A stretch of DNA of 63,560 nt, filler included, from Coriobacteriales bacterium (GCA_031263105.1; 8 parts of 8 records of this genome joined end to end with filler, not necessarily neighbours in it); one strand, 5' to 3'; counted from the whole stretch's first letter, positions 46,030 through 52,824 are shown. The notes: generated by a model not told the origin, from the letters alone. Numbers and translations: made by a program.

Positions 46030-46524
46030 CTAACCTTCCAGTGCCTTTCTGAGGACCTTCAGGGGGAGGAGGACGCAGTCTTGGCGCATCCGTCCGATCC
46101 GTTGTTCGCCGTACCAGCCGAGCATCTCCTCGCCCGTCAGCTCCAGGACCTCGGCGACCATGCGGCCTTTGACCTCCTCCATCAAACGGTCGGCGGTGCC
46201 GAGGCAGAGCTCGCAGCCATAGCCGCTCCAAGAGGCGTCGACGATGCGGGCGCCTGTCACAGGCGCGGTCACGCACCCGCCTTTCGCGCTTGCGCCCTTG
46301 CCATCTGCGCCTAGCGCAGCCATGACGGCACCGCCGCCTGCGACGGCCGTGCTTATGCCCGCCTCCGCGCCCTTGCCATCCGCGCACACCGCAACCACGT
46401 TGGCAACGCCGCCTGCGACGGCCGTGCCTATGCCCGCCTCCGCGCCTGGCGCGTCCGTGACGACGGTGACGGTCACCGTGTCCCCGCACAGCGGGTTATC
46501 GCCGGTTGCGGTATGTTCGGGCAT
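46030..46524 (-). CDS. SufU/IscU-like scaffold with an internal duplicated insert
   Basis: NPLCGD, GYGCELC and R..C.LLP; ATG at 46524 after a GAGGAGG RBS. Confidence 0.75.
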   Translation of the reverse strand: MPEHTATGDNPLCGDTVTVTVVTDAPGAEAGIGTAVAGGVANVVAVCADGKGAEAGISTAVAGGGAVMAALGADGKGASAKGGCVTAPVTGARIVDASWSGYGCELCLGTADRLMEEVKGRMVAEVLELTGEEMLGWYGEQRIGRMRQDCVLLPLKVLRKALEG

Positions 46525-48334
46525 CTCCCCTCCTCTCGCTGAGGGTGGCCATGGCACCGAGCAGGACGTCCACGTCGGCCTGCGTGGAGTAGGCCGCGAA
46601 GCTCGCCCGTGTGCTTGCGGGCAGGCCGAGCGCCCGGTGCAGCGGCATGGCGCAGTGGTGGCCGGCCCTAACGGCGATTCCCTCCTCGTCGAGCGCGGCG
46701 GCAAGGTCGTGGGGGTGCAGGCCGTCGAGCACGAAGGAGACCAGCGAGCAGCGGGAGGCGTCCGCGCCGCCCAACACGGTGACGCCTTCCAAGGAGGCAA
46801 GGCCGGCCGTCGCCCGGGCCACGAGCCCTGCGGTGTGGCGGGCCTGCGCGTCGAGGCCGATCTGGGAGATGAAGGAGAGCGCCCTCCTCATGCCGACGAC
46901 CGCCGAGATAGCAGGCGTACCGCCCTCGAAGGCTGCGGCGCCCTCGGCGCAGGTGAAGCCCTCGCGCGTCACCCTGCCGACCATCCCGCCGCCGCCCATC
47001 AGCGGTTCCATCTCGGCCATGCGCTCCGGTTTGCACCAGAGGAATCCCAGACCTAGGGGGCCGTAGGCCTTGTGGAGGGAGGCGACGGCGAAGTCGACGT
47101 CCAGCTCGGCGAGGTCGAGCGGCATGTGCCCGAAGCTCTGGGCGCAGTCCAGCAGCACGGCGGCCCCTGCCTCGTGGGCCTCGGCGACGAGCCGCCGCAC
47201 CGGTAGCTCGGTGCCCAGCACGTTGGAGACGTGGGTGAGGGCGATGAGGCAGGGGCCTTCCTCGAGCGCACGGTACCATGCCGACCCGCCTCCAGGCCCT
47301 CGGGCATCCTGCATGTCCGGCCCGTTACAGGTCACACCCCCACTGTCACCCCGGGCCCCACTGTCACCCCGGGCCGGGCGAGGAATCTTTGGGTCGGGGG
47401 GGCCTTCGGCCTGCGGTCGACCGCTGGCGCGGTCGAGGATTCCTCGGCAGGCTCGGAATGACAGTGGGGCCCGAGGTGACAGTGGGGCCCGGGGTGACAG
47501 TGGGGCCCGGGGTGACAGTGGGGGCCGGGGTGACAGTGGGGTGTCCGTGGAGGGTGTGACCAGTGACCCCAGCCCACCTCCAGGCCCTTGGCCGTCCTCC
47601 GTCGCCCGGCCGCTGCTGGGCCCTCGGGCACCTTTCGCCGTCCGGTCGTCGCCCACCGCCAGGCCGTCCTCCTCCCCCTGCTCGTCCCACGCGAGGAAGC
47701 GCACGGCGGGGCCGCCGCGTGCGGCCAGCATCTGCCAGGGGACGATGTTGGCGTGATGGTTCTCCTCCGCGACCAGAACAGGGCCGCAGGGCCTCTCCGA
47801 AAAGCGCCGCCATCCGCGCGCGACGAGGTTTATGGACTCCGTGGTGCCGTGCGTGAGTATGAGGGACTCCGGCCCCACGTTGAGGAAGGCCGCCAGCTCC
47901 TCGCGCCCCGCCTCGTAGGCGTCCGTGGACTCCTCGGCCAGGGTGTGGATGCCCCTGTGGATGTTGGAGCGCCCTGCCCGCTCGTAGCGGTCGAGCTCCT
48001 CTATGACGCAGGCGGGCATGAGGCTCGTGGCAGCGGAGTCGAGATAGACGAGCGGCAGGGCGCGTGCGCCTATGCGTCGGGAGAGCACGGGGAACTGCGC
48101 ACGGACAGACGCTGCGAGGGCGGAAGACGGGGTTGTGTCGCCCACATAGGGAGCGGCGGAGTCGGGAGCGGCGGTGGAGACCACCCCGGCGCTTCGTGCC
48201 GTCCGTGAGCCTGTAGGCTCGTTCTCGCTGGAAACGCTTCGCGTTTCCCGGGCGCTCGAACCCCCTCCGAAGGAGGGGAATGTCGATACCCCGGCCGTCT
48301 CCTCTGTCCGCATTGTCCCGGTCGTCTCCCTCAT
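46496..48334 (-). CDS. sufS: SufS-like cysteine desulfurase/selenocysteine lyase with in-frame repeat insertions
   Basis: YLDSAATS, GTTESIN, HHANIVPWQ, SLHKAYGP (PLP Lys), FEGGTP and RAGHHCA (catalytic Cys). Confidence 0.88.
   Translation of the reverse strand: MRETTGTMRTEETAGVSTFPSFGGGSSARETRSVSSENEPTGSRTARSAGVVSTAAPDSAAPYVGDTTPSSALAASVRAQFPVLSRRIGARALPLVYLDSAATSLMPACVIEELDRYERAGRSNIHRGIHTLAEESTDAYEAGREELAAFLNVGPESLILTHGTTESINLVARGWRRFSERPCGPVLVAEENHHANIVPWQMLAARGGPAVRFLAWDEQGEEDGLAVGDDRTAKGARGPSSGRATEDGQGPGGGLGSLVTPSTDTPLSPRPPLSPRAPLSPRAPLSPRAPLSFRACRGILDRASGRPQAEGPPDPKIPRPARGDSGARGDSGGVTCNGPDMQDARGPGGGSAWYRALEEGPCLIALTHVSNVLGTELPVRRLVAEAHEAGAAVLLDCAQSFGHMPLDLAELDVDFAVASLHKAYGPLGLGFLWCKPERMAEMEPLMGGGGMVGRVTREGFTCAEGAAAFEGGTPAISAVVGMRRALSFISQIGLDAQARHTAGLVARATAGLASLEGVTVLGGADASRCSLVSFVLDGLHPHDLAAALDEEGIAVRAGHHCAMPLHRALGLPASTRASFAAYSTQADVDVLLGAMATLSERRGDARTYRNRR
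47324..47545. repeat. Family A element inside the sufS coding sequence
   Basis: Same arms and core as the intergenic copies, plus 18-bp tandem arm units. Confidence 0.9.
48141..48287. repeat. Family B repeat in the sufS N-terminal extension
   Basis: Matches 4451-4597. Confidence 0.85.
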
Positions 48335-49068
48335 CTCAAGTCGGCCTCCAAACGGTGCAGGTCGGCGGGGGTGTCCACATCCTCGAAGACCCGCTTGTCG
48401 TCGCAGGGGACGGGGCAAACGCGCAGCCCGTGCCCCTCGGAGGCATCTGCGAACAGGCGGCGTGCGCCCTCGTCGCCTTCGAGCGCCTTGAGGGCGTCGA
48501 AGCTGTGCGCGTTGAACAGGCAGGGGTTGCCGCGACGTACGCCCGCCTCGGTCACGAAGACGTCTCCGGGACGGATGCGGTAGCACTCCATGAGAGCCCG
48601 CAGGTGGGAGGCCTCGACGAAGGGCTGGTCCGCCACCATGACGAGCAGCGCGTCGAAGCCGCGCTGCTCGCAGAAGCGCACCGCCGTGCGGATGGAGGTG
48701 GACTGGCCCTCGTCCCACTGCGCATTGCGGACGACGGCGACGCGGGCCTCAGAAAGCCGTTCACGCATCTCGCCATGATAGGCACCGGTCACCACAAAGA
48801 CAAGCCCCGCCCCGCTCTCCTGCGCGGCCTCGACGGCGCGCCCGAGCAGGGTCGAGGCCCCGAAGGGCACCAGCAGCTTGGGCACGCCCATGCGACGGGA
48901 GGCGCCCGCCGCCAGCACCGCGACCGCCACCTGTGCTGCCGTGCGCGCTGCCGTGCACGCCGAGGGGCCTGCCGAGGGGCCTGGCGCTGCCCGCACCGAT
49001 GTCACCGCCCCCTCCAAGGAGGCGGCAGGCAGGCCGTTGCCCTCTCGGGGAAGCTCCGGGTGCCTCAT
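48331..49068 (-). CDS. MocA-like nucleotidyltransferase (Moco cytidylyltransferase family)
   Basis: VLAAGASRRMG.PKLL, GQSTSI, ADQP, GNP.LF, GDEGAR and DVDTP. Confidence 0.85.
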   Translation of the reverse strand: MRHPELPREGNGLPAASLEGAVTSVRAAPGPSAGPSACTAARTAAQVAVAVLAAGASRRMGVPKLLVPFGASTLLGRAVEAAQESGAGLVFVVTGAYHGEMRERLSEARVAVVRNAQWDEGQSTSIRTAVRFCEQRGFDALLVMVADQPFVEASHLRALMECYRIRPGDVFVTEAGVRRGNPCLFNAHSFDALKALEGDEGARRLFADASEGHGLRVCPVPCDDKRVFEDVDTPADLHRLEADLR

Positions 49069-51948: not shown

Positions 51949-51957
51949 GTCGCTCCC

Positions 51958-52824
51958 TTAGACGTCGATGCCTTCGCGGGAGTCGCGGTCCTCGTTGGGA
52001 GGGGTCCCCGCCTTGATGCCCCGCCAATCGACCCAAGCGAGGAAGCGCTGGGGAACGTACAGCTCGGGCTGGAACTGCTGGCTGTAGCGCACGGCGCGGG
52101 CAAGCGAGACCGCATGGGCAAGGTCGCTTATGTCGTCGATGTCGGCCACCGGCAGCAGGGAGACGAGGGGTATCTTCCCGGCCATGGTCTTCTCGACATA
52201 GGCATCGAGCGCGGGACGGCCCGTCATGTTGTAGTAGACCTCTTGGTGGTCGATCGCCGTCGTGCGCGTCCAGCCGATGAGGCTGACGCCGACCTCCTGG
52301 CAGGGCGCCTGGACGACGCCGCCCGTCTCGCTCGTTGCGAGGAAGTGCTGCAGCCAGCGGAAGCCGTTGGTGATGTGCTCGCGCGGCAGCAGGGGGATGT
52401 CGGCGCCGACGCTGAGGACGCTGTCGAATCCCGCGTCGAACACCTGCTGGAACGCGTTGTCGAAGTGGTCGTCGAAGGTGGCGCCCTCGTCGACGATGTA
52501 GGCGAACTCGCGCGGCCACTCCCCTATCTCCTCGAAGGCGGCGCGTATAACCTCGACGTTCTGTGCAGGCGTGGTCGAGATGAAGAGCCGGTACTCGTGC
52601 CCGTCGGCGGCAGGGTCCGCCGCACGCGCAGCCTCGTCCTCCTCCTCGAGCCCGTGCAGGGCGAGGCAGCACAGCTCGGCGACGTCGAACATGCTCCGGC
52701 GGAATATCTCCGCAGCCTCCTCCGCAGAGAAGGGGCCGCCCTTCTCCCGCGTCAGGCGCGTCTTCACGAAGCCCGGGATGGGCGGTTTGGTGAACAGCAG
52801 GAGCGCGTGTCGTTTCATAGCCAT
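51958..52824 (-). CDS. DUF2064 / CofC-like transferase (radical-SAM-associated type)
   Basis: LLFTKPPIPGFVKTRL, GADIP.L and DIDDISDL. Confidence 0.75.
   Translation of the reverse strand: MAMKRHALLLFTKPPIPGFVKTRLTREKGGPFSAEEAAEIFRRSMFDVAELCCLALHGLEEEDEAARAADPAADGHEYRLFISTTPAQNVEVIRAAFEEIGEWPREFAYIVDEGATFDDHFDNAFQQVFDAGFDSVLSVGADIPLLPREHITNGFRWLQHFLATSETGGVVQAPCQEVGVSLIGWTRTTAIDHQEVYYNMTGRPALDAYVEKTMAGKIPLVSLLPVADIDDISDLAHAVSLARAVRYSQQFQPELYVPQRFLAWVDWRGIKAGTPPNEDRDSREGIDV

Follow-up and report, generated by a model that had tools for sequence, protein, structure and literature searches.

The seven-gene locus studied here lies at positions 46030-52824 of the window, by which we mean the whole stretch of 63,560 nucleotides analysed from a Coriobacteriales bacterium (GCA_031263105.1). 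The stretch consists of contigs of a metagenome-assembled genome joined by runs of N, and the locus falls on a single contig (G000:C117, window 45806-60670) of an assembly of 250 contigs (86% complete, 2.9-Mb genome). In the direction of transcription the genes encode a DUF2064 protein, a radical SAM enzyme, a ferredoxin-DUF169 fusion and a GNAT acyltransferase (module A), followed by a MocA-like NTP transferase, a SufS-type cysteine desulfurase and a SufU-like sulfur-transfer protein (module B). An earlier note on this DNA had read them as one candidate biosynthetic operon. We consider it fairly probable that the locus consists instead of two accessory modules for two classes of molybdenum enzyme, set side by side, and not of a seven-step pathway.

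Gene content and junctions of the locus

The DNA is about 70% GC, and spurious frames therefore crowd raw lists of open reading frames (ORFs). Gene calls were made with a codon log-odds caller trained on long ORFs of the same genome. Domains were assigned from Pfam and NCBIfam profile scores, compared with the curated cut-offs. All seven genes named in the earlier note were recovered, co-oriented on one contig (Table 1), and every domain named for them was confirmed by Pfam and NCBIfam matches.

Table 1. Window coordinates of the seven genes and of neighbouring features
Feature	Position	Strand	Remarks
DUF2064 protein (module A gene 1)	51958-52818, alternative ATG 52824	-	286 aa
Radical SAM enzyme, GDGT-MAS/Tes/TrsS family (module A gene 2)	50527-51948	-	473 aa, N-terminal Zn-ribbon
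2x[4Fe-4S] ferredoxin-DUF169 fusion (module A gene 3)	49535-50530	-	331 aa
GNAT acyltransferase (module A gene 4)	49065-49523	-	152 aa; Pfam Acetyltransf_7, Acetyltransf_1
MocA-like, MobA-like NTP transferase (module B gene 1)	48331-48930, alternative ATG 49068	-	199 aa
SufS-type cysteine desulfurase (module B gene 2)	46496-48184	-	562 aa
SufU/NifU_N-like sulfur-transfer protein (module B gene 3)	46030-46524	-	164 aa
Fic-domain gene upstream of module A	53318-54370	-	Pfam Fic
In-frame insertion inside sufS	47282-47671		390 bp, 130 codons; core is a dispersed repeat resembling a miniature inverted-repeat transposable element (MITE), with inverted arms
MocA-SufS intergenic spacer	48185-48330		copy of a second, rarer repeat
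DUF2064-Fic spacer, upstream junction of module A	52819-53317		about 300 bp of high-copy repeat, 1189 blastn high-scoring segment pairs (HSPs)
Contig end downstream of sufU	45806-46029		inside the MITE-like dispersed repeat; 399 HSPs, 185 contigs

The earlier statement that the genes overlap or lie within about 10 bp of each other held at four of the six junctions. The DUF2064 and radical SAM genes are 9 bp apart, the radical SAM stop overlaps the ferredoxin-DUF169 start by 4 bp, a gap of 11 bp precedes the GNAT gene, and the end of sufS overlaps the start of sufU by 29 bp. It failed at the GNAT/MocA junction (134 bp) and at the MocA/SufS junction (146 bp). Closing these two would require long N-terminal extensions of low coding potential. 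If begun at its alternative ATG, the MocA gene would overlap the GNAT stop codon (ATGA), and the SufS 'extension' resembles a family of dispersed repeats. The short starts are favoured because MocA orthologs are about 200-205 aa long and the SufS extension is a repeat match. The remark that the set comes without sufBCD was upheld: none of these genes is adjacent and no SUFBD_core match was found in the 86%-complete assembly, in a search whose control was positive in 14/14 reference genomes.

Module A accompanies a molybdopterin oxidoreductase

To describe the distribution of module A, orthologs of its radical SAM enzyme were collected. In a set of 40 related genomes they were present in 18 (at least 57% identity), and three more genomes held paralog-level matches only. 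Thirteen loci were fetched around the orthologs and their domains checked; the lower-GC loci L023, L024, L027, L031 and L032 were assessed by tblastn only, not by codon-model calls. The DUF2064, radical SAM and ferredoxin-DUF169 genes stood together in 13/13 of the fetched loci, with the GNAT gene next in most. A wide scan that took a single genome for each species was then run with an alignment built from 17 radical SAM homologs; it gave 164 relatives, of which the best 80 loci were analysed. The DUF2064, ferredoxin-DUF169 and GNAT genes surrounded the radical SAM gene in 58 of the 80, GNAT following ferredoxin-DUF169. Fifteen had the first two without a GNAT match, five had DUF2064 only, and two were cut before DUF2064. 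No MocA, SufS or SufU gene was found in the 13 loci of relatives or in the 80 loci of the wide scan.

Wherever the record title gives the taxon that finely, the 80 loci all come from Coriobacteriia; six are titled only Actinomycetota, Actinomycetes, 'bacterium' or 'uncultured bacterium'. The genera represented include Gordonibacter, Raoultibacter, Adlercreutzia, Ellagibacter, Enterorhabdus and Parvibacter, alongside many uncultured Coriobacteriales.

A gene for a molybdopterin oxidoreductase of the bis-pyranopterin guanine dinucleotide (bis-PGD) class, about 740 aa long and here called MoA2, usually lies directly upstream of DUF2064. The common order is MBL-fold (metallo-beta-lactamase) protein, PhsA-like oxidoreductase (MoA1), 4Fe-4S protein, NrfD, CCG protein, MoA2, DUF2064, radical SAM, ferredoxin-DUF169 and GNAT, after which a CCG protein or flavin reductase often comes. 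A locus was taken as informative if its sequence reached at least 2.6 kb upstream of DUF2064 (65/80). The oxidoreductase ended within 600 bp upstream of DUF2064 in 57 of these, and in two more (L048 and L053) it abuts or overlaps DUF2064, which brings the adjacency to 59/65.

Co-occurrence was assessed in an evenly drawn class sample of 400 genomes, with thresholds of E<=1e-100 for radical SAM orthologs and E<=1e-150 for MoA2 orthologs. Radical SAM orthologs were present in 15 genomes and MoA2 orthologs in the same 15, with no exception either way; in 15/15 the two genes lie on one contig, 0.9-1.5 kb apart. In a phylum sample of 400 genomes, ortholog-level radical SAM genes occurred in three, all Coriobacteriia, and paralog-level ones (32-38% identity) in six others. 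By co-occurrence, module A is a dedicated partner set of MoA2.

In the genome under study the two are parted. The PhsA-like trio is found on contig C102 (72% identity), whereas C232 carries, at its end and beside transhydrogenase genes, the MoA2 ortholog (about 55% identity). The 160 bp that follow MoA2 (C232:36435-36594) are unique, low-GC sequence without a DUF2064 start or a repeat, with one other copy in the genome. An adjacency of MoA2 and DUF2064 hidden by an assembly break was considered and rejected on this ground, and MoA2 and module A are therefore taken as separated. Possibly the 160-bp stretch marks the border of a mobile element by which the two were parted.

Several further observations were made on these loci. 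In the genome under study, tblastn found more than 25 matches to molybdopterin oxidoreductases. In L022/L039 (G007:C129) two tandem DUF2064 paralogs (45% and 61% identity to the window protein) precede the radical SAM gene, and a LuxR-type regulator replaces the upstream MoA2. A 600-aa ORF with a GNAT match (L047:4644-6446) reaches into a CCG-domain region and is a possible GNAT-CCG fusion. The C-terminal extension of MoA1 in L028, L029 and L021 matches Pfam OCRE at about 30-34 bits, which is odd in bacteria and maybe compositional.

Module B accompanies xanthine-dehydrogenase-family enzymes

Of the module B proteins, the MocA-like transferase scores 128.5 bits with Pfam NTP_transf_3, above the cut-off; with the MocA model TIGR03310 it reaches 137.8 bits against a cut-off of 186.45, and with PucB 118.2 bits. 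The desulfurase matches Aminotran_5 at 367 bits in two stretches and TIGR01979 at 405 bits, below the cut-off of 475.1, the alignment being split by the insertion. This insertion is absent from 4/4 orthologs and leaves the catalytic motifs intact: in an alignment with the four orthologs, the HK motif (pyridoxal-phosphate lysine) and the HHC motif (catalytic Cys) are kept. The SufU-like protein matches Pfam NifU_N at 31 bits (cut-off 22) and falls short of TIGR01994 (31.5 against 92.5). Two orthologs begin with about 31 residues that are missing from this protein, and it contains Ala/Gly-rich inserts about 37 and 13 residues long; the CGD motif and two further Cys are retained.

Module B is rare. 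Orthologs of the MocA-like protein (47-54% identity) were present in 4 of the 400 class-sample genomes, and none was found in the 40 related genomes at E<=1e-15. Database homologs of about 50% identity bear Eggerthella and Adlercreutzia names. In all four ortholog genomes the order is MocA, SufS, SufU and a large LuxR regulator, then the 2Fe-2S, molybdenum-cofactor-binding and FAD subunits of an enzyme of the xanthine dehydrogenase (XDH) family. The co-occurrence with xanthine-oxidase-type enzymes that the earlier note had proposed as a check was thus found for module B (4/4).

The genome under study has three paralogous LuxR-regulated XDH-family clusters, on C71, C19 and C126, each with the 2Fe-2S, cofactor and FAD subunits, a protein of about 580 aa of unknown kind, and then XdhC. 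The best-matching of these clusters is the one on C71 (58.6% identity), where the LuxR gene lies 287 bp from the contig end. The neighbours downstream of sufU are out of sight because C117 ends 224 bp past it within the repeat; the ends of C71 and C117 share one repeat (80.6% identity over 93 nt). A plausible joining of C117 to C71 would restore the MocA-SufS-SufU-LuxR-XDH order of the four genomes, and one LuxR-XDH cluster probably lies just past the C117 end. In one relative a Fic gene (L125:8722-9603) stands directly upstream of the MocA ortholog, and in the window a Fic gene stands before module A. Such an arrangement would fit if module A had been inserted between Fic and MocA, though the two Fic proteins are only weakly similar (36% over 107 aa).

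The seven genes as one pathway or as two units

If the seven genes formed a single operon pathway, it would build a modified Mo/W-pterin cofactor or a sulfur metabolite, with the MocA-like and DUF2064 proteins as transferases and SufS/SufU as sulfur donor. We regard this as unlikely. It draws on the arrangement itself, that is, seven co-oriented genes on one contig with no terminator-like site found between them and a uniform GC content, and on the assembly checks. Logan contigs, which come from a run that may be the source of the assembly, cover the whole stretch at an even depth of about 20-26, and a single one (48258-49817) crosses the GNAT-MocA junction with identical sequence. In a second sample there is a strain, diverged by several per cent, for which parts of MocA, SufS, module A and Fic were recovered; the sufS insertion appears to be at least partly present in it. 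The TrsS paralog cluster described below likewise joins a MocA-like transferase, a cysteine desulfurase and a radical SAM enzyme, which makes such a combination biochemically plausible.

The comparative data speak against the single pathway. All seven genes were adjacent in none of the 80 loci and in none of the 13 from relatives. In the class sample the modules occur in 15 and 4 of the 400 genomes, with one genome in common (G080), where they lie 139 kb apart; the 14 genomes that have module A without module B suggest that A works without B. Each module has its own conserved partner, MoA2 for A and an XDH-family enzyme for B. The two loose junctions are those by which module B is linked, and the second of them holds a repeat. 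A single seven-gene pathway is thus unlikely because the distributions of the modules are nearly disjoint. Neighbourhood conservation, which the earlier note had offered as a check, was found for module A (58/80) and module B (4/4) and not for the seven-gene set, an outcome that the note had itself named as refuting the claim. The note's link to molybdenum cofactors or enzymes was supported by the context of both modules (59/65 loci and 15/15 class genomes for module A with MoA2, 4/4 for module B with XDH) and by the TrsS paralog, which in relatives stands among MocA-like, XdhC-like and cysteine-desulfurase genes. The conserved functional units are MoA2 with four genes, and three genes with an XDH-family enzyme, not seven together; the seven-gene arrangement is a local juxtaposition.

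Repeats run through the locus. The MITE-like repeat, which has inverted arms and tandem units of 18 nt, gave 721 blastn HSPs on 193 of the 250 contigs; it is also found at 45806-46010 and about 52990-53290, and many contigs end within it. Translated, the MocA-SufS spacer shows 64-81% identity to sequence on C222, C110, C43, C224 and C226, and the local Logan depth is raised there. Logan contigs break at 47366-47535, inside the sufS repeat.

A number of points weigh against the reading as two molybdenum-enzyme modules. The block has a GC content of about 0.70 across all seven genes against 0.62 upstream; with no terminator-like site among the genes, co-transcription and some functional coupling of all seven could still hold. 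No Logan contig crosses 53040-53263 at the DUF2064-Fic junction, which leaves the Fic side of module A without independent confirmation. The genomes in the samples are kin, so the counts are not independent, and two MoA2 candidates were scored per genome in the class sample. The oxidoreductase does not adjoin module A in 6 of the 65 informative loci (L038, L039, L040, L046, L057 and L058), which are from close kin of the window organism; as it is also absent from this place in the window, adjacency to MoA2 is dispensable. The match to every NCBIfam equivalog model (MocA, SufS, SufU, TrsS, Tes, TIGR04282) stays under the cut-off. The insertions in SufS and SufU and the N-terminal loss in SufU suggest that module B is perhaps decaying or under relaxed selection. 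The C117-C71 join is no more than plausible, since both contig ends carry a repeat that occurs throughout the genome. No function for module A, DUF169 or DUF2064 was found in experiments or papers. The maturation role of module A is drawn from adjacency, and processing of substrate or product, or extra subunits, would give the same adjacency.

Three flavoprotein reductase genes and a possible phage remnant were seen near the locus. Two paralogous FAD_binding_2 reductases of 563 and 564 aa lie beside a divergent LysR regulator upstream of Fic (54535-59077). A third (43756-45561) is on the neighbouring contig; its best NCBIfam match is vinyl phenol reductase (212.6 bits, below the cut-off). A Bro-N domain gene near the far contig end (59526-60062) hints at phage-derived DNA.

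Proteins of module A

The DUF2064 protein scores 42.7 bits with Pfam DUF2064 (PF09837; cut-off 25.8), 51.6 bits with TIGR04282 (cut-off 134) and 17.7 bits with CofC. Judged by these profile scores, it is a member of DUF2064 and not of the arsenosugar-named TIGR04282 subfamily. Among PDB sequences it matches 3CGX alone, annotated as a 'putative nucleotide-diphospho-sugar transferase', in keeping with a nucleotide-diphospho-sugar/nucleotidyl-transferase-like fold. Orthologs were present in 78/80 related loci.

The radical SAM enzyme matches Pfam Radical_SAM (PF04055) at 77.4 bits (cut-off 29.5) and Zn_ribbon_HMPTM. The CxxxCxxC motif (C-N-L-R-C-P-V-C) and further Cys are invariant in 17 homologs. 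With the NCBIfam model TrsS (NF045646) it scores 366.5 bits over model positions 2-440 of 441 (cut-off 490), and with Tes (NF045702) 319.9 bits (cut-off 450). The Tes alignment covers residues 13-328 only (model 2-317 of 486); the C-terminal third aligns with TrsS. The ortholog in L029 scores 340.3 bits with the TrsS model. The best PDB relative is 7TOL, the GDGT-MAS tetraether lipid synthase (256.6 bits).

These two proteins bear on a reading in terms of selenium or arsenic, in which SufS would be a selenocysteine lyase, the radical SAM enzyme part of a TrsS-type selenoprotein system, and the DUF2064 protein an arsenosugar-type glycosyltransferase. The names of the nearest models, TrsS '(seleno)protein' and TIGR04282, point this way, as does a weak SclA match of 126.6 bits. 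A 2015 comparative genomics study (PMC5322559) names a Slackia DUF169 gene as one of the predicted partners of a selenium-related gene. The three NCBIfam matches are far below their cut-offs, and the arsenic proposal of the earlier note had the TIGR04282 score as its sole basis; no ars genes occur in any annotated locus. As to selenium, the best selD match in the 86%-complete assembly scores 21.4 bits against a cut-off of 125, and the radical SAM ORF has no in-frame TGA or other stop. This reading is scarcely credible. The radical SAM gene of G035 was considered as a selenoprotein gene and discarded, as the flagged TGA is the true stop codon.

It is also very improbable that the radical SAM enzyme is a bacterial membrane-spanning lipid synthase of the Tes/GDGT-MAS type, whose neighbours would modify head groups. 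The scores with 7TOL and Tes speak for such an enzyme, and a UbiA prenyltransferase gene lies nearby in one relative (L026). The Tes match is partial and under its cut-off, however, with a TrsS-like C-terminal third; the gene shows perfect co-occurrence with MoA2, a molybdopterin oxidoreductase, and no conserved lipid-synthesis genes were seen in the 80 loci.

The ferredoxin-DUF169 protein matches Pfam DUF169 (PF02596) at 186.6 bits (cut-off 27; profile positions 2-208 of 209) and Fer4 families. Five Cys of the DUF169 part are identical in all 51 sequences compared. The AlphaFold model has a mean pLDDT (predicted local distance difference test) of 89.1. A Foldseek search against the PDB matched the ferredoxin domain only and gave nothing at E<=0.001. 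A wide VIA-align search of the DUF169 part gave PheRS beta-type (Z 5.0) and TYW3-like (Z 4.8) matches, all below Z 8, and no fold was assigned. In the ESM Atlas the best scores did not exceed 0.86, to clusters of the GGGtGRT family, and gave no lead. A complex prediction for the radical SAM enzyme with ferredoxin-DUF169 scored 0.00, which is evidence neither way.

Proposed roles of the two modules

We infer the chemistry of both modules from domain content, synteny and co-occurrence. MocA makes the cytosine dinucleotide form of the molybdenum cofactor, and a cysteine desulfurase supplies the Mo=S sulfur in xanthine-oxidase-family enzymes. From Mo-molybdopterin, the MocA-like protein of module B would make the cytosine dinucleotide form, and SufS/SufU would provide persulfide sulfur for the terminal sulfido ligand. 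The clients would be the LuxR-regulated XDH-family enzymes of the same genome. The adjacency to XDH genes in 4/4 genomes and the single genome with both modules point to a set for the XDH cofactor; with synteny and these textbook roles taken together, module B most likely serves to make the cytosine-dinucleotide cofactor of XDH-family enzymes and to sulfurate it.

For module A, the most likely role is that of an accessory or maturation set serving MoA2. The ferredoxin domain would pass electrons to the radical SAM enzyme, which would carry out Tes-type C-H activation, and the DUF2064 transferase and GNAT would add or activate groups. Together they would tailor or mature the cofactor or the active site of MoA2. 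In this genome the set has been parted from MoA2 and now stands upstream of module B. A more specific proposal, that the C-H activation is directed at the pyranopterin dinucleotide or at an active-site residue of MoA2, with nucleotide or sugar and acyl groups added by DUF2064 and GNAT, is tentative and unlikely to be right in its detail.

Module A could instead take part in the catalytic pathway or complex of MoA2. It would then make, activate or further convert the small-molecule substrate or product of MoA2, through steps such as radical C-H functionalisation, nucleotidylation/glycosylation or acylation, or ferredoxin-DUF169 would be an electron-transfer subunit. The perfect co-occurrence and adjacency apply equally to this possibility, the cluster has electron-transfer parts (FeS, NrfD and CCG proteins, frequently with a flavin reductase), the substrates of known members of this radical SAM family are small and hydrophobic (7TOL being a lipid synthase), and GNATs mostly acylate metabolites. 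Against it, module A is kept apart from MoA2 here and in 6/65 loci, the nearest paralog family, TrsS, sits among genes of cofactor-maturation type and not among catabolic genes, and the clusters of the 80 loci contain no conserved transporter or obvious catabolic enzyme. A catalytic role is possible, though we doubt it; the accessory or maturation role is preferred.

In Eggerthellaceae and related bacteria, molybdopterin oxidoreductases number in the dozens, and they drive drug and dietary-polyphenol metabolism in the gut. Found across many genera with one oxidoreductase, module A is a testable lead to a new step in Mo/W maturation or tailoring. It could give a first function to DUF169 and DUF2064 and a non-lipid role to the Tes/TrsS radical SAM family. 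If the specific proposal above were true, common gut Coriobacteriia (Gordonibacter, Adlercreutzia, Ellagibacter and Raoultibacter among them) would use an undescribed variant of the Mo/W-bis-pyranopterin cofactor. The MocA-SufS-SufU cassette is a simple candidate for finishing XDH-type cofactors in these bacteria.

Comparison with known systems

The earlier note had stated that no characterised pathway has this composition, and none was found in the searchable literature. Searches there found no description of module A or of a tie to MoA2, no reports on DUF2064 or on DVU155x/AOR (aldehyde oxidoreductase) maturation, and, among the titles listed, nothing relevant on Tes in Coriobacteriia; the literature passages seen on DUF169 give no function for it. 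In the review PMC13188914, the definition of TrsS is credited to Haft and Tolstoy 2025, a paper that lay outside the scope of the search.

TIGR04282 proteins share with the first gene product of module A the DUF2064 family and the 3CGX fold class, and with its gene the place next to a radical SAM gene. They are presumably paired with the radical SAM enzyme ArsS, whereas the partner in the window is of the Tes/TrsS family and no arsenic genes were seen.

GDGT-MAS and Tes resemble the window enzyme in the N-terminal Zn-ribbon, the radical SAM core and extra conserved cysteines. The window enzyme differs in lacking the Tes C-terminal alignment, in its bacterial host and in its tie to a molybdopterin oxidoreductase instead of lipid genes.

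Module B resembles the MocA/desulfurase/XdhC maturation systems in its MocA-like protein and SufS/SufU, with orthologs placed before XDH genes in 4/4 genomes, and XdhC genes come after the XDH genes of its own genome. The studied maturation of xanthine-oxidase-family enzymes uses NifS/IscS-type desulfurases, whereas module B uses SufS/SufU, with a repeat-derived insert of 130 residues in SufS, an altered SufU and scores below the equivalog cut-offs. It also differs in placement, after module A here and directly after Fic in one relative.

TrsS is the closest family over the full length of the radical SAM enzyme. Paralogs in relatives score 509.5 and 474.5 bits with the TrsS model, and none was found in the window's own assembly. 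The true TrsS paralog (509.5 bits, about 35% identity to the window enzyme) is represented by L034 (G012:C5) and L036 (G010:C97). Its neighbours are the DVU_1551 NTP transferase (MocA-like), an XdhC-family AOR maturation factor, the DVU_1553 AMP-dependent ligase, the DVU_1555 C-GCAxxG-C-C Cys-rich protein and an EF2568/SclA-like cysteine desulfurase. The common theme is a radical SAM enzyme, a transferase and a sulfur donor beside molybdenum maturation genes. The window enzyme differs from TrsS in its score below 490, its low identity and the lack of a selenocysteine codon, and its neighbourhood has DUF2064, ferredoxin-DUF169 and GNAT in place of DVU_1551, XdhC, DVU_1553 and DVU_1555; what the two have in common, in kind, is limited to a MocA-like and a desulfurase gene. 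The clients differ too, a bis-PGD oxidoreductase for module A and an XDH/AOR-family enzyme for TrsS. The TrsS cluster and module A thus present two branches of one radical SAM family that adjoin molybdenum-enzyme genes, each with a nucleotidyl-transferase-like protein, and module A belongs to a known kind, the molybdenum-enzyme accessory sets with a radical SAM enzyme.

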